DNA of 62,944 nt, counting the filler, from Globobulimina sp. (Eukaryota), in assembly GCA_003354225.1 (NCBI GenBank). It is 53 parts of 53 records of this genome, joined end to end, with 100 filler letters (N's around TTAATTAATTAA, not from the genome) between each part and the next. Parts side by side here need not be neighbours in the genome. Positions count along the whole stretch, not along the records: positions 23,802 to 24,891 come from PIVH01023808.1; 52 more parts are not named here. The stretch is one strand, 5' to 3'. Numbering within the stretch: the stretch's first letter is position 1; each line of letters opens with the position of its first letter. The notes under the pieces were generated by a model that made no database searches, was not told the origin of the DNA, and was given only the letters and a program-made list of their open reading frames with translations. The translations under genes were made by a program, and so were the position numbers. This document shows, piece after piece, positions 3,018-48,676 of the stretch.

Positions 3018-3369
3018 GATAAAATGTTAAAGATTGTAAAGCTTTTACTTAAAACTTTCTAAACATAACCTTCGTCACATTTGACGTAATTTGACAAACG
3101 TGTTACCACAACGATGGAAGATAATATTAATTGTGGCACCACATCGATGCAATATAACGATTTGCATATTATACACAAACATTCAGATCGCAAACGCAAA
3201 CCTACCAAACCATCTGAATTACTATGGGTCAGCGGTACAGCTACACAATGGAATGAAATATACAGCAATTTATGTAATAAATTAGCAAATGTCACATGTC
3301 CAAATAAAGTTGAATCCAAATTAGGTGTATTAGATAGTCTTCATTCAGACACATTGAAGAATATCATTG

Positions 3370-3471
3370 TTATTCAAGAATTTGTGTCATTGTTTCGTAG
3401 CCATCCATCATCGGCATCATGATATCCATAAGCACGAGGTTCACATCCGGATTCTCTCCCAACAGTTTCAG
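3370..3471 (-). pseudogene. Bacterial response-regulator receiver (REC) domain fragment at a chimeric contig end
   Basis: Reverse strand reads LKLLGENPDVNLVLMDIMMPMMDGYETMTQILE*, the LVLMDIMMP-MDG phosphoacceptor motif. It is not in the ORF track. Confidence 0.85.
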
Positions 3472-3571
3472 NNNNNNNNNNNNNNNNNNNNNNNNNNNNN
3501 NNNNNNNNNNNNNNNTTAATTAATTAANNNNNNNNNNNNNNNNNNNNNNNNNNNNNNNNNNNNNNNNNNNN

Positions 3572-4472
3572 AGAAATTACCACATTTTTCATCATTACAT
3601 TGAATATAACAAACAATATTTGCAATATCTTCCATTGTTAAGCAATTTAATGGTTTTACTTTCTTTACAAAATACTGACCATTCATTAAACCAAATCGAA
3701 TAAACGGACATACCGATTTTAATAAATCTAATCTTGGACTGCTATTATTATTTGTATTGGTATTATTATTACTGTTGTTTTTTGATTTTGAGTCATTGTT
3801 TAATTTTTGTTTTTTCTTTGGTGGTTCGATTATATCAAAATCATTATTCTCATTGTTTGATATTTTATAATTTGCCCACTTCAACACAGCATCCCATAAA
3901 TCTTCTTCTTTAATATTTAAACTATCGCATTGTAGAAATATTATCATTGGATTTACATTCATTTGCAGGAATCCTTTGGATTTTACAATTTGTAGTGCCA
4001 TTGATCCAATTTGAGCTAATTTCTGTCGAATAATATTTTCATATTCAAATACTTTTGCATTCAATACGTGGTTTAATAATAAACATATATTTTTGAATGA
4101 AATGCATGAACTAAAATAATGATCACACAATTCCGACAATAACGAGATTTGATATTTATCGCAAATTTGCTTAATTAATACAATATTATCTGCAGATAAC
4201 ATTGGATCATTACAATATGCAAATTTTAATACTGATTCAAATGCATTTGGATTAATATCAATAATTTCGACTTCTGAATTTGGTTCACCTTCTCTCATAT
4301 TTCCATATAACATTGCTTTGAATACAGGCGATATGGAAGCTAATAACAACCGATGTGTTTTAATTTCTTTTCTTTCTTCGCCAACAATAAATGCCACATC
4401 ACATAGTTCTTGACTATCGAACAATTTTAATAGATTCTGTCGTTGTTTGAGTTGAGTTGTTTGGAGAGCCAT
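3572..4472 (-). CDS. BTB/POZ-BACK domain protein (3' partial)
   Basis: BTB: CDVAFIVG..HRLLLASISPVFKAML..AFESVLKFAY. BACK: LQCDSLNIKEEDLWDAVLKWA..IRFGLM. Confidence 0.92.
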
Positions 4473-4761
4473 GATAATGAATGTTGTTTTTCACAGTGTG
4501 ACTAGCTATGCTGCCTACGCAAAAGTGCTTTTTCAATGCCAACATTATTACAAAAGTGATGGGTGTACACATGAATGCATTAAAATGCCAATGCATAAAA
4601 ATAAAAATGGGAGTTTGTTGATTGCAACATATTTGTTGTCGCGTATGGATTTTGGTTCGGTNNNNNNNNNNNNNNNNNNNNNNNNNNNNNNNNNNNNNNN
4701 NNNNNTTAATTAATTAANNNNNNNNNNNNNNNNNNNNNNNNNNNNNNNNNNNNNNNNNNNN

Positions 4762-4902
4762 TATACTGTTACTAATGGAGATTTAACAGACTACAGAATA
4801 GCAGACGCAAAAGGTATCATAATTGGCTTAAAATGGAAACGTATTGCAGACAGACAAGCAGAGCAGGAAATTTTAAACTCTTGCTTCGTTGAGAAAGTAT
4901 AA
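4762..4902 (+). CDS. Phage protein C-terminus, Gp88-like
   Basis: YTVTNGDLTDYRIADAKGIIIGLKWK resembles the GD-D-R-D-G-I-GLK tail of phage Gp88-type proteins as I recall it. Stop TAA at 4900-4902. Confidence 0.5.
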   Translation, partial: YTVTNGDLTDYRIADAKGIIIGLKWKRIADRQAEQEILNSCFVEKV

Positions 4903-4912
4903 ATATAAACTG

Positions 4913-4946
4913 AATTGCCTTGTATGTAATGTACAAGGCAATTTTT
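4913..4946 (+). terminator. Intergenic hairpin, probable intrinsic terminator
   Basis: Perfect 12-bp stem AATTGCCTTGTA/TACAAGGCAATT with a 7-nt loop, followed by T residues just after a stop codon. Confidence 0.6.
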
Positions 4947-4972
4947 AATTAATAACCAAAATACATACAACA

Positions 4973-5533
4973 ATGAACAAACCAAAAGTAGTACTTAAGA
5001 AAGTAAAATATCACCAAGGTCATGAGGGAGATGGTGTTAATTGTGACGTTTGGCTAGATGGTGTTAATTGTCTTCATGTTTTAGATGATGGCAATGGTGG
5101 TGGTTTAAATATCACTGACTATGCTTATGGTAGTAAAAGACCTGACAGAGTTAAGAAACTGGTTAAAGAGTTAAATGACTTCGTTAATAGTCTACCTGAA
5201 CAAACTTTAGACTTTGGTAGTGGTAATTGTATTAAAGACGACCAAGGCAAAGATAAACTGTTTAAAATAACCTTGGAAGACTATATTAATGATATGTTAA
5301 TAGAACATCAAAAAGCAAAGGAAATGAAAAAGATGCAAAAACTTATGCAAACTTCATTTGTTATTGGTGTGCCTAATGGTGCAAGTTATTCATACATTAA
5401 TTATAAGAAACCATTGTCCAATATCCCTAAAGTTTGGCTACAAGGTAGATTAGACCATATAATTAAAAAGCATTGTACAGAGGATGCTGTTATCCTTAAC
5501 ACAAACTTAGTTGAATTAGGTTTAAAGATATAA
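4973..5533 (+). CDS. Phage hypothetical protein (Bacteroidota-phage-like)
   Basis: Complete intronless 186-aa ORF with an A-rich leader lacking an SD. N-terminal LKKVK..C-VWLDG..DDGNGG pattern resembles phage hypotheticals. Confidence 0.7.
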   Translation: MNKPKVVLKKVKYHQGHEGDGVNCDVWLDGVNCLHVLDDGNGGGLNITDYAYGSKRPDRVKKLVKELNDFVNSLPEQTLDFGSGNCIKDDQGKDKLFKITLEDYINDMLIEHQKAKEMKKMQKLMQTSFVIGVPNGASYSYINYKKPLSNIPKVWLQGRLDHIIKKHCTEDAVILNTNLVELGLKI

Positions 5534-5541
5534 TCCCTGCA

Positions 5542-5580
5542 AATTATGCGTCAAATAACTGTAACATTTGACGCATAATT
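5542..5580. repeat. Perfect 15-bp inverted repeat (operator/terminator-like)
   Basis: AATTATGCGTCAAAT-9 nt-ATTTGACGCATAATT between two phage-like ORFs. Confidence 0.85.
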
Positions 5581-5653
5581 GCGTATATTATGTTATTAAT
5601 TAAAAACCAATACACACACATATGGCAAACATTAAAGAAGAATTACAAAAGAT

Positions 5654-5851
5654 TTATGATGAATGTACGAGAATATATTCAGAGAAAGGTGCACCATCGA
5701 GCAGACACACTCCATCCAGCGGCTCAAGCAATCCTATCATCGATTTTAACAGGGTACTTTTTCCTGTACCATTCCTTCCTATGAGCGCCACCATCTCACC
5801 CCGGTTCACCGTCAGATTGAGCTGAGTTAAAAGGGCATTTTCCTTATGATG
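5654..5851 (-). pseudogene. Bacterial ABC-transporter ATP-binding subunit N-terminal fragment (chimeric)
   Basis: Reverse strand reads LNLTVNRGEMVALIGRNGTGKSTLLKSMIGLLEPLDG (Walker A). It runs into the phage ORF near 5675-5690. Confidence 0.85.
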
Positions 5852-5951
5852 NNNNNNNNNNNNNNNNNNNNNNNNNNNNNNNNNNNNNNNNNNNNTTAAT
5901 TAATTAANNNNNNNNNNNNNNNNNNNNNNNNNNNNNNNNNNNNNNNNNNNN

Positions 5952-7041
5952 TCAATGAAGTCGTGCCAGCCATTGCCGTACGCATTGAATATCTTCTTCA
6001 AATCTGACGTGATGGCAAACCGCGCCGTATCCAACGTAGTCGAGTCATTGAATATATATCCAAAGTCAATATGAAATAAGGCGCAGGATTCCAGATTGAT
6101 CAGTACATTGTCGTGGTGCCTATCCCTTACGCCACAGATAAAACTGGCTATGTAGGCTGCAGCCGAGCTAGTGATCAATTTATTAAATTTCTGCCGTGCT
6201 ATTATCTCATCTCTCGGCGTTATATTGCTCATAAATATGTTTTGTAACGTTTTCACTTTATTCAGCTCGATACAGTCCGATATCATTTCGATAATACCGA
6301 CGTCATTGCCCATCGGGATGCATTTATAAATCAAACACTCCACAAAATATTTGCCCTTTTGATATTTTAAGTTATTCTCCTTCCAAATATCATTCATAAA
6401 CTTGAACATTTGCAATATAGCCTGGTCTTTGCGTAAATCGTCGCCTTTTTTTAATATAAAGGATGAACTTAACTGCATGCCGTCGTATTTCATACGCGAT
6501 CCATGCACAGAGTCATTAATATCAGAATCCTGTTCGTTGTATTTCATCTCCGTATCTTTGACGTAGCAGTCAATGAGATATGGTTTGGCATTGCTGCTAA
6601 ATATATGCCTCACGGTCAGCTGTTGTAGGAATTTATTCCCATTGATAGGGTCAAAGAATCTGTTCTGTAGCTCCTTGGGTACAATGATAATGGTGCCTGG
6701 CTTCGATTTATTATCAATGGGCGCACGAAATAATTTAATCGGGTCTTTCTCTTTAAAATAGATCACATCCTCATGACCCACACTCGACGCATTGTCACAC
6801 CTTTTGTGCGGCAATGAATTTGTATCTGGAAATTGTCCCATTTCGGGCGAGCCCAAATAGCGTTTGGGTAACCCGGCCATTCCCGTCTCGTTCTCGGGGG
6901 AATACGGCGTGAATGGCGCAGAGCGTTCACTGAACACAGTGTTGGTTTCACTGAATATAGTGATGCCATCATCGAAATCTTTATCAGCACCGACATCACC
7001 ATCGACATCATCAACGCCAACAATATTATCAACATAATCAT
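5952..7041 (-). CDS. Phosphatidylinositol 3-kinase family catalytic domain (partial)
   Basis: FSSNAKP, FILKKGDDLRKDQAILQMF, GVRDRHHDN and LFHIDFGYIF. The frame is open across the whole contig. Confidence 0.93.
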
Positions 7042-23801: not shown

Positions 23802-23852
23802 TTCTTTAGCCCATCCACTAGCTTTTTTAACTTTAATTTTAATTTTTCCCAT
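23802..23852 (-). CDS. Phage-like ORF start (partial)
   Basis: MGKIKIKVKKASGWAKE after an A-rich leader. Confidence 0.45.
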
Positions 23853-23925
23853 CGCTTTTTTATTTTTTAATTAGTACTCGTATTTAGTTTTGTGCGTTAT
23901 TTCGCACGTTTCTTATTGCTGTCCG

Positions 23926-24406
23926 TTATGGGTAATTCCTCCCATCCGCACAAAATCCCTCCAAGGAATTACCCATAATGTTCAGGGAATATTGGCTTCC
24001 CTTTTCAGTACATCAAATTCTATTAATTTCGTGAGCTCCCGCTACGTAACTACCCATAACAACGAATATAGGCAATGAAATTAAGGACTCTAACCTAATA
24101 CATGAAATTCGAAAAAATCATTATTCCATCTACTGATAGCGTCAGAAATTGTTATAGATGCAATTAGCTTATTACTGTCATCTTGCATTGTAAACCATTC
24201 TCCTAATGTATGGTCATACTTAACAATGCCAGTATAACAATTTCTTTCCTTGTTGTAGCATCCAATAATATTCTTTTCAGTAATATCATCAATGCGAATT
24301 TCATTAATTGATACTATTTTTTTTGCCATTTTACTAAATTTTATATGTTTATAATTAAAAAAAGTCCTTAATTTCCCTTCCCATATTCCCTGAACATTAA
24401 CGAGCA
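23926..24406. repeat. Nested attC-like inverted repeats
   Basis: Perfect IRs at 23926-23940/23964-23978 (15 bp), 23976-23992/24383-24399 (17 bp) and 24077-24089/24363-24375 (13 bp), with CCCATAAC/GTTATGGG boxes. Confidence 0.8.
24090..24329 (-). CDS. Phage-like hypothetical protein (79 aa) enclosed by inverted repeats
   Basis: Likely start is MAKKIV at 24329, after an A-rich leader without SD. Confidence 0.7.
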   Translation of the reverse strand: MAKKIVSINEIRIDDITEKNIIGCYNKERNCYTGIVKYDHTLGEWFTMQDDSNKLIASITISDAISRWNNDFFEFHVLG

Positions 24407-24546
24407 TGCCCAAAGGGGGCTGTCATACGGTTTGCTTATTCAAATTCGTTCAATGTACATTCTTCGCATTTACCATCAGCCCATATATCTCTATCTTTAT
24501 TGCATAGAGTGCAAACCTCATTAGACGGCTCATTGCCGTTAACGCT

Positions 24547-24744
24547 CTAGCTTTCCTTCTGGGTATGTAAAATTTTTATAGCTTCACCAAATTCCGCAAT
24601 TAAGTTTTCGGCATTAATTATTTCATAATCAATAACTGAATTCATTTCTATAAAAGCAGGCATACCTAGTTCCATGTGCCGAAAACTTAATTGCTTTTGC
24701 TTCTCAACAATAGCATCTTGTAATATTCTGATTGCATTTTTCAT
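24547..24744 (-). CDS. Phage-like hypothetical protein (65 aa, possible TAG read-through to 24436)
   Basis: MKNAIRIL..EFGEAIKIL helical protein with an A-rich leader. Confidence 0.75.
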   Translation of the reverse strand: MKNAIRILQDAIVEKQKQLSFRHMELGMPAFIEMNSVIDYEIINAENLIAEFGEAIKILHTQKES

Positions 24745-24803
24745 TTTATTAAAAATTTTAAGTTCATAAATATTTATTCAATTCATCGGTTAACCTTTGG
24801 ACA

Positions 24804-24891
24804 CAGCCGTTAAAAAGCTGTATAGCGAATGCCCAAAATGAATGGCTCTCGTGCGATACGTAAGAACTCCTCGCACACGCCATACAGCCAG
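24804..24891 (-). repeat. attC-like hairpin (left end cut by the contig edge)
   Basis: GCTGTATGGCG (24888-24878) pairs with CGCTATACAGC (24827-24817). Inner GTGCGA/TCGCAC stem, followed by TTTAACGGCTG. Confidence 0.55.
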
Positions 24892-47487: not shown

Positions 47488-47588
47488 NNNNNNNNNNNNN
47501 NNNNNNNNNNNNNNNNNNNNNNNNNNNNNNNTTAATTAATTAANNNNNNNNNNNNNNNNNNNNNNNNNNNNNNNNNNNNNNNNNNNNC

Positions 47589-48676
47589 CTTTGTAATGCG
47601 CCAGATTCAAAAATGTTAGCAAAAGAATATAAAGATGGCAGTAATAATTATAAATGGAAATATTGGACCAGGAAAGAGATGCATTCGGAAATATTATCCG
47701 CAGCGCGCGCATTCATCGCATTAGGTTTAAATGCGTTTGAATCTGTATGTATTATGGGATTTAATTCACCGCAGTGGTTTTTTGCCGACCTGGCCGCAAT
47801 TTATAGCGGTGGCTTAGCCGTTGGATTATATACAACAAACAATGTCGGACAATGTGAATACATTTTAAATAATTGTAATGCGCGAATCCTCGTCGTGCAA
47901 AATCAGAAATTATTAAATAAATTCTTACAAATAAAACAACGTAATAATTTAGGCAATGTTTGTGCGATTATTGTGTGGGAAGAATATGACACTGATATAC
48001 AACCACAATACGATGATTTGAAGATAATGCATTGGGAGGAATTAATACATAATTATGGCAATACAGAGATTGATAAATATAATAAGATTATATTGCAACG
48101 GCAAAAAGTAATAAAACCAGGCAATTGTTGCACCATTATATGGACGAGCGGCACAACGGGGACACCCAAAGGGGTCATGTTGTCGCATGACAATTTAATA
48201 TGGACCATACGATCGGTATTATTATCGCAAAAACATATTCATTTTTGGGGCGAAAAATCCGTGGCTAGACATGCCATTATTTCCTATTTACCGTTATCGC
48301 ACATTGCAGCTCAATTGCTGGATATTTATGGGCCATTAATGATTGCGTATAATGATGGCAATGGCACTATTTACTTTGCACGGAACGATGCATTAAAAGG
48401 CTCATTAATCAAAACCTTATCCTATGTAAAACCGACTGTTTTTTTGGGTGTGCCTCGTGTGTGGGAAAAAATTGAAGCAAAAATGAGATTGATTGGCAAA
48501 AGAGGCAATTTTGTGGTGAAATTTATAAGTAAGAATGCAAAAGCAATTGGACTGCGTGCTGCGTATAACAAAGAGTTAGGCGGTAATATGAAGGTACCGT
48601 TGTTATATTGGTTGGTGAATAAGTTAATATTTGCAAGTATCAAAAAGAAATTAAACTTGGGCCGATTGCAACTGGC
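47589..48676 (+). CDS. Long-chain fatty acyl-CoA ligase, bubblegum (ACSBG) type (partial)
   Basis: IMGFNSPQWF, WTSGTTGTPKGVMLSHDN, SYLPLSHIAAQ and FLGVPRVWEK. Confidence 0.95.

Follow-up and report, generated by a model that had tools for sequence, protein, structure and literature searches.

A 1,090-bp contig of the Globobulimina sp. assembly GCA_003354225.1 (PIVH01023808.1) raises the question of what long complementary arms are doing on either side of a small gene, whether they mark a unit of gene exchange or act in the transcript. The contig lies at positions 23802 to 24891 of the window, i.e., the whole stretch of 62,944 nucleotides that was analyzed, in which 53 contigs, each 1089-1091 bp long and arranged in order of length, are joined by 100-nt N/TTAATTAATTAA/N linkers. 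It is exactly one complete contig (34% GC) with linkers at both ends, so the contigs adjoining it in the window are not its genomic context. The original prediction described it as a phage-like fragment with the architecture of an inside-out integron, in which a whole gene (ORF79, 79 aa) sits in the loop of an attC-like hairpin. We found that the contig derives from an uncultivated tailed phage, in which it represents part of the small-gene (early-type) region, and that stems ending in GTTA and TAAC recur at the gene boundaries of its viral relatives. Tentatively, we read these stems as sense-strand, probably mRNA-level clamps, located at conserved gene-boundary elements that double as mosaic joints.

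The phage origin supposed at the outset is borne out by a conserved 75-nt cassette that the contig has in common with viral contigs bearing TerL, portal and tape measure genes. A blastn search of the contig against 50,697 cultured-phage records gave no match. The related viral records are siphovirus-like. Among 25 of the 102 open reading frames (ORFs) scanned in record G004 (56.7 kb, 33% GC, CheckV 100%) were TerL, TerS, portal, tape measure, Erf, DnaC/DnaD loaders, methyltransferases and HNH. In record G002, scanning 50 of the 59 ORFs of at least 90 aa (60 in total) gave TerL, portal, capsid, NinG, YopX and a DnaB-like helicase, and HNH endonuclease genes are present in both records. Signals of a Bacteroidota-type host, also proposed, are present. 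Shine-Dalgarno (SD)-like 4-mers precede 12 of 192 long ORFs in the relatives, the leaders of these ORFs contain 42-51% A, and TerL is nearest to that of Flavobacterium phages (best E-value 3e-40, 36% identity). An SD-less, A-rich initiation signature is typical of Bacteroidota, and from these three features taken together a Bacteroidota host can reasonably be inferred. A 23-mer of the cassette had no matches in 185,579 GTDB genomes, and thus neither a prophage nor a host was found.

The stems were sought with a rule-based detector in scripts, in a survey covering 202 kb of relatives. Perfect repeats of at least 8 nt with GTT at the outer end were found 84 times vs 36.7 expected, the largest excess of any outer triplet. 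This signal is regional and strongest in G002; genome-wide, G004 shows no enrichment of GTT-ended perfect repeats of at least 9 nt (6 vs 3.5). There are 19 to 24 stems within 16.9-41.4 kb of G002, and the geometry given here was counted on the 19 that have at least 9 bp, using sense ORFs of at least 40 aa. A stem consists of 9-10 perfect pairs, a conserved G.T wobble (sometimes with a T.T mismatch before it) and 3-6 more pairs. The conserved motif TAAC|GG follows directly on the right flank, and the loops measure 23-430 nt. Pairing beyond the perfect run reaches 4.78 of 8 positions, compared with 3.42 when partners are swapped (maximum 4.10 in 1000 swaps), so that the extension of the stem is partner-specific. 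In 16 of the 19 stems a stop codon lies 0-30 nt before the end of the right arm, whereas random positions gave a mean of 1.4 and a maximum of 6 in 2000 trials. In six of these 16 stems the gene is terminated by the TAA of TAAC, and in eight an entire ORF is inside the loop. The other three have loops of 58-67 nt and no ORF of at least 40 aa ending at the right arm. The wobble pairs are strongly polarized, with 37 on the regional sense strand vs 2 on the antisense strand (p 3e-9), both exceptions being located where the regional strand call flips beside terminase genes. At one orthologous site in a conserved element downstream of the genes (the 3' element, see below), five different arm sequences are found, each fully complementary.

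The cassette of the contig belongs to the same set of boundaries. It was found in 12 other contigs (6 from IMG/VR and 6 further metagenome contigs) at 82-100% identity: a 28-mer from it identified 5 IMG/VR contigs, and a 23-mer identified 10 metagenome loci, 4 of which were taken as the same contigs as in IMG/VR. Its 5' edge is TAAC|GG, and in 10 of 12 instances a complementary GTTA partner lies 39-361 nt upstream, with a different sequence each time. What follows the cassette is a variable gene slot, since the downstream ORFs in 12 instances, including our own contig, form nine unrelated groups. Four of the eight complete slot ORFs scanned match different PHROGs (E < 1e-4). Ten slot ORFs have their stop on the locus; it is TAG in seven of them, and a conserved trailer comes after eight. 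The A-rich leader of the cassette and the T-rich trailer form a 14- to 17-nt inverted repeat spanning the slot ORF. This repeat exists in two allelic forms, and the leader matches the trailer in all eight trailer-bearing instances. Nucleotide similarity between G002 and G004 is confined to 1.4 kb of 57 kb, from which the cassette (82-100%) and the 3' element (75-93%) stand out. The latter lies ca. 90-170 nt after the slot ORF (L001-L005, L011, L014 and L023). It comprises the T-rich trailer, a motif containing ACGAG, and a hairpin with a conserved 22-nt loop and a stem in which the changes between loci are compensated. This hairpin overlaps a GTT...AAC hairpin, and therefore the two are mutually exclusive. 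A role as a small RNA, attenuator or origin-like element is possible for the 3' element. A second, diverged cassette (82-87% identity) is found in G004 (L008) at 47520-47898, in the other strand cluster, where it heads a 97-aa ORF and again has a leader/trailer inverted repeat, in this case 12 nt perfect.

Several comparisons place exchange events at these boundaries. The 50 stems have just 33 distinct 9-nt arms, and 27 of 31 same-arm pairs enclose unrelated loops; the check at the protein level gave only short matches from the shared flanks. The contig's own pair, GTTATGGGTA/TACCCATAAC followed by GGACAGC, is an example, the same arms enclosing a 93-aa ORF in G002. The original prediction expected its half-sites to recur around other genes in related phages, and this was true of the GTT...AAC-ended stems, which are found around different contents, but not of the arms of ORF79, which were found nowhere else. 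One recent event is seen between G001 (1-966) and L023 (1-2671). They are 98.5-99.65% identical on either side of a 1.69-kb block present in L023 only, which carries a cassette, slot ORF, 3' element and further modules, and both breakpoints read ...TAAC|G. Variants were also seen in the sequencing runs. Two unrelated metagenome runs (sediment and marine) contain 23853-23927 at 100% identity and diverge right after 23927. In the run from which the assembly probably derives, a second contig agrees with 23924-23955 and differs from our contig ahead of position 23924. The run contigs thus diverge within the CGTT at 23924-23927. Comparison of the sequences shows the conserved boundary elements at the stems to be joints for the gain, loss and replacement of modules between phages.

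Alternatively, the stems might have no structural function, the boundary regulatory repeats shuffling genes by homologous or illegitimate recombination, as PeSL elements do, with complementarity as a by-product, e.g., of template switching at quasi-palindromes. That the cassette and 3' element are nearly the sole nucleotide similarity among diverged genomes, that the mosaic joints fall at boundaries and that the arms of the contig are perfect and undecayed, as after recent templated events, would all fit. However, in a by-product the wobble would not be on the coding strand 37 times out of 39, nor would 16 of 19 right arms be placed at a stop codon or full complementarity be retained at one orthologous site through five arm sequences, and we strongly doubt this explanation.

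Another proposal is that the GTTA...TAAC modules are single-stranded DNA (ssDNA) recombination sites. They would fold on one strand, and a structure-specific recombinase or nuclease would cut and rejoin them at the base of the stem (TAAC|G). The TAAC|G positions in the recent indel and in the run variants, the identical arms around unrelated contents, and the limited arm set are consistent with it. So is the G:T strand bias, which resembles that of attC sites in the portions available of PMC5027507. Also in its favor, a Xer-like recombinase adjoins five stems in record G003, and HNH endonuclease genes are present in G002 and G004. Nevertheless, a tyrosine recombinase (PF00589) was found in one of five related viral records and not in the CheckV-100% G004, and no recombinase or transposase domain appeared in the 50 of 59 G002 proteins of at least 90 aa that were scanned. 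Every second left arm is located within an ORF, and excision of such modules would truncate genes. The loops are up to 430 nt long, attC has the opposite box order and strand, and the 5-nt TAACG shared by the breakpoints also permits microhomology-mediated deletion. We consider such sites an unlikely alternative. The same low likelihood attaches to the broader proposal that a clade of siphoviruses, probably infecting Bacteroidota, has a hairpin-addressed gene-cassette system without a dedicated integrase, an inside-out analogue of the integron. If it were true, one and the same virus-borne frame could take unrelated genes that are excised, inserted or replaced at the base of the stem on a single strand.

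Within the contig itself, there are five perfect inverted repeats of at least 13 nt in 700 nt, two of them inside ORFs and not noticed originally, vs a mean of 0.037 and a maximum of 1 in 300 first-order Markov shuffles, which excludes chance for the main inverted repeats (Table 1). ORF79 does lie between paired arms, just where the original prediction had put it. The 13-bp perfect stem noticed then is the core of repeat I1, whose left arm ends 33 nt before the ATG, and the outer repeat I3 had been only partly described. I1 and I3 together make up a two-tier bracket around ORF79. Further along, the 3' arm of hairpin I2 ends in TACCCATAAC (23934-23925), the right arm of a GTTA...TAAC module, and I2 and the long-range GTTATGGGTA/TACCCATAAC pairing are mutually exclusive. 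This module is almost empty, with 116 nt of non-coding sequence inside, and is followed by the 75-nt cassette. RNA folding of 23853-24420 gave z -7.3 for the sense strand and z -6.1 for the antisense strand, with minimum free energies (MFE) of -157.4 vs -120.7 kcal/mol. The imperfect stems are 4-8 kcal/mol better on the sense strand (sense/antisense duplex dG -32.0/-24.3 for I1 and -19.5/-15.6 for M3). Of the two pairs of complementary boxes said to bound the short segments between genes, GTTATGGGTA/TACCCATAAC was found as described, whereas GTTAACGGCA/TGCTCGTTAAT did not exceed chance (region z -1.45, 18 of 200 shuffles folding equally well, and the pair unused in the MFE structure).

Repeats of this kind could also be invertible DNA segments (phase-variable switches) or paired operator half-sites for a DNA-looping regulator. 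Invertons are common in Bacteroidota, and the arms of 13-20 nt with spacings of 270-390 nt are in the range of such elements. However, no invertase is linked to the stems in the relatives, each site has arms of its own, and sites for a protein that binds double-stranded DNA would not be expected to show strand-specific wobble. No joint in the opposite orientation was seen in the run contigs, a weak argument at a depth of only 4-5x. Both possibilities appear highly improbable.

To return to the clamp reading, each small gene of this phage group, or its 3' part, would be closed by a long-range stem, its 5' arm being located in the 5' untranslated region (UTR) or within the ORF, and its 3' arm at the stop codon or directly downstream. 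The most frequent stems have conserved GTTA...TAAC ends, a site-specific interior and a conserved G.T(U) wobble, always on the coding strand, and the TAAC|GG flank follows directly. Formed in the mRNA, the stems would act as cistron clamps that protect or define the 3' end (stability or processing) and couple folding with translation, each stem being opened whenever a ribosome arrives at the stop codon. At the slot, the leader-trailer pair would close the A-rich region of initiation as soon as transcription has reached the trailer and the transcript is finished. The boundary elements might in addition serve as recombination linkers, as the PeSLs do in T4-type phages according to the parts available of PMC2839356 and PMC4122927.

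A number of observations weigh against this proposal. In 8 of the 16 G002 stems with a right arm at a stop codon the left arm is inside an ORF. Strand-biased G:T mispairs are a mark of ssDNA attC sites as well (in the available text of PMC5027507), and thus the wobble bias shows single-strand structure but does not by itself indicate RNA. An outer helix between the conserved flanks had to be dropped, as its score hardly changed with partners swapped (6.04 vs 6.03); it is not partner-specific and is not claimed. A process at the DNA level would account more directly for breakpoints that fall exactly at TAAC|G and for unrelated contents between identical arms. No RNA run was found among the sequencing runs that contain the contig. 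The remaining points concern the bracket of ORF79. Its arms do not have GTTA/TAAC ends, they were seen in one sample only, probably the source of the assembly, and perfect repeats of at least 11 nt are about 10 times denser in the contig (6 in 1.09 kb) than in the relatives (78 in ca. 184 kb). With neither the family ends nor more than one low-depth sample, there is a small chance that this part is an artefact. Specifically, the contig-specific repeats (I1, I3, I4 and the 13-nt pair in ORF79) might have arisen by amplification fold-back or chimeric assembly in a low-coverage sample. Their roughly tenfold density would agree with that. The only sequencing run with the full contig has a depth of 4-5x and is probably the source sample, and the X4 and X5 runs from the same sample contain next to none of it. 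The arms are in no other collection searched. In IMG/VR, the I3 20-mer and the I4 18-mer had no matches, and the five matches of an I1 17-mer had neither the partner arm nor similarity in the flanks, so they are attributable to chance. Still, fold-back chimeras make long inverted duplications and not arms of 13-18 nt around unique loops; the order of the arms is the same in separate run contigs that extend across them, with no strand-change joint; and the geometry, with the 3' arm at the stop and the 5' arm in the UTR, matches that of the family in independent assemblies. We therefore regard an artefact as very unlikely.

Whatever the stems do, the phage system is not an integron. In the portions available of PMC5027507, attC is an imperfect hairpin of 57-133 nt located between cassettes, with boxes in the order 5'-RYYYAAC...GTTRRRY-3'. 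R and L boxes surround an unpaired central spacer, the bottom strand folds, IntI and attI are needed, and G:T mispairs are enriched on the recombinogenic strand (1.24 vs 0.39 per site; PMC5027507). The phage stems resemble such sites in being imperfect hairpins defined by structure, with GTT/AAC triplets, strand-biased G:T, a variable terminal region and exchangeable small genes (compared with the same portions of PMC5027507). They differ in that AAC comes first and GTT second in attC, whereas here the order is GTTR...YAAC with the gene inside the stem, the coding strand favored and no IntI linked (again as far as those portions describe attC). The integron mechanism originally suggested consequently does not apply, with no IntI linked, the box order reversed, the coding strand favored and loops of up to 430 nt. 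When both strands were folded, it was the coding strand that was preferred, in energy and G.T wobble, and not the bottom strand as in attC. The IntI-like integrase that was expected nearby was not found either, the sole recombinase being Xer-like and scoring, in two stretches, 152.3 bits vs the cut-off of 265 of TIGR02249. It should be noted that the contig of 1090 bp is too small to include an intI gene. The Xer-like tyrosine recombinase (268 aa) is encoded at 3120-3926 on the minus strand of G003 (L029), beside five consecutive GTTA...TAAC stems (3963-7032). Xer-like is its best assignment, yet it falls under every NCBIfam curated cut-off, that of the Xer-type model included. A search of Rfam 15 with E up to 10 gave only chance miRNA and snoRNA matches (best E 0.63). 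Finally, the compact attC-like hairpin reported at 24804-24891 does not exceed chance when taken alone (z -1.87, 9 of 200 shuffles as good). A module with its left arm beyond the end of the contig might have its right end here.

All genes of the contig are read on the minus strand. In that direction, ORF65 is followed by an in-frame tail past its TAG, ORF79, a non-coding stretch, the cassette and a truncated gene starting at its ATG. The tail is probably a gene remnant or a separate module and not evidence of recoding. In a second contig of the probable source run, 24578-24770 is swapped for 205 other bases while 24512-24577 is kept, and the ORF65/tail boundary looks like a module joint or gene remnant rather than a case of stop-codon recoding. 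Recoding of TAG in ORF65 was considered and rejected because TAG is an ordinary stop in the relatives, where it ends 25 of the 102 ORFs of G004 (called greedily from ATG with the standard code and covering 86% of the record). The TAG stops followed by the conserved trailer in the slot ORFs also count against it. ORF79 had no matches among 1.84 billion representatives in a full phmmer search and no relative in a protein atlas (best 0.77). For both ORF79 and ORF65, nothing was found in Pfam and PHROGs (best E 0.03-0.14), and a word-indexed homologue search was empty. Direct repeats of 36 nt (24322-24357 and 24737-24772, 75% identical) reach up to and just past the start codons of ORF79 and ORF65 and form a shared leader or promoter-like region. 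Elsewhere in the window, six other contigs were scanned with Pfam. Five had matches above the curated cut-off (RVT_1, BTB/BACK, UQ_con, Ion_trans and AMP-binding), several of these families being typical of eukaryotes, and the sixth had a C2H2 zinc-finger match, sub-threshold only. The eukaryote-type domains indicate that the assembly is mainly eukaryotic and that the phage contig is a passenger in it.

Table 1. Features of the phage contig, in coordinates of the window
Feature	Coordinates	Strand	Evidence and remarks
Whole contig, fragment of a phage small-gene region	23802..24891	-	Linker boundaries; cassette common to viral contigs
Start of gene in variable slot	23802..23852	-	ORF call; first 17 codons, truncated by contig end
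Conserved 75-nt cassette	23853..23927	-	Small 5-bp hairpin, ACGAG motif, A-rich leader; ends at next ATG
I2, local hairpin	23925..23978; arms 23926-23940 / 23964-23978	-	15 bp perfect, 23-nt loop
I3, outer bracket of ORF79	arms 23976-23995 / 24380-24399	-	20 nt, 95%, 17 nt perfect
I3 right arm	23976..23995	-	End overlaps beginning of I2 left arm
Left half of GTTA...TAAC module	24051..24076	-	16-nt left flank of family pattern, then GTTATGGGTA (24060-24051)
I1	arms 24064-24089 / 24363-24388	-	26 nt, 85% complementary, 13-nt perfect core; flanks ORF79
I1 right (3') arm	24064..24089	-	Begins at the base after the ORF79 TAG stop
ORF79, ORFan wholly within the I1/I3 bracket	24090..24329	-	79 aa; homologue searches empty
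Perfect inverted repeat inside ORF79	24144-24156 / 24233-24245	.	13 nt
Composite 5' arm upstream of ORF79	24363..24399	-	Outer I3-left 24399-24380 and inner I1-left 24388-24363, overlapping
In-frame run after ORF65 TAG, with CxxC-x12-CxxC	24436..24546	-	36 codons, stop TAA
ORF65	24547..24744	-	ORF call and family searches; stop TAG, no family match
I4, perfect inverted repeat inside ORF65	24596-24613 / 24677-24694	.	18 nt, 63-nt loop
Branched hairpin	24807..24888; arms 24873-24888 / 24817-24832	-	Followed by T5-AAC|GG; weak alone, z -1.87

Phages capture and swap small early genes, many of them anti-defence candidates, by mechanisms that have been detailed for few systems, PeSLs being one. Here, the gene borders of a whole uncultivated phage group carry a precise and testable grammar, with site-specific arms, fixed GTTA/TAAC ends, strand-specific wobble, a 3' arm on the stop codon and breakpoints at a single dinucleotide step. 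Stems acting in RNA would represent a new kind of cistron insulation in hosts in which initiation is not led by Shine-Dalgarno sequences, and stems acting in DNA a new system of cassette exchange. Whichever applies, the 75-nt cassette and its 3' partner are a ready marker for hypervariable gene slots in metagenomes. In the literature searched, which did not cover subscription journals, we found no description of gene-bracketing GTTA...TAAC stems in phages.

Among the systems known to shape such regions, the PeSL of T4-type phages combines a sigma-70 promoter with a local terminator stem-loop of conserved sequence, according to the parts available of PMC2839356 and PMC4122927. As in the PeSLs described there, conserved composite non-coding elements border small genes, mostly of unknown function, in plastic regions (PMC2839356, PMC4122927). 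Insertions, deletions and replacements take place at these elements between related phages, which is what the stems, the nine slot groups and the indel display here. Unlike the PeSLs as described in those parts, the phage stems are long-range (loops of 40-430 nt), enclose a gene or its 3' part and have site-specific sequences. The composition is different too, with 1 sigma-70-like site vs 5.8 expected and a sole terminator-like site that is on the antisense strand. PeSLs also give rise to mini-circles through exchange of neighboring elements, and no joint of that kind was seen in the run contigs, at their depth of 4-5x. A second relative in structure is provided by the ORF-bearing intervening sequences of 23S rRNA and the rRNA processing stems, long stems that are cut by RNase III. 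Here as there, the sequences flanking a loop the size of a gene pair into a long stem on the transcribed strand. The difference would be that those belong to rRNA and hold one conserved gene family, whereas each phage genome appears to have dozens of stems, around unrelated protein genes. Lastly, the MPMEs of mycobacteriophages are ultra-small mobile elements with short inverted repeats around one small ORF, an arrangement also seen here in a phage genome. No target-site duplication was found at the I3 arms, where the flanking bases are not direct repeats, contrary to a miniature inverted-repeat transposable element (MITE) or an MPME. Moreover, MPMEs have a conserved interior and variable insertion sites, whereas in these phages it is the frame that is conserved and the inside that varies.

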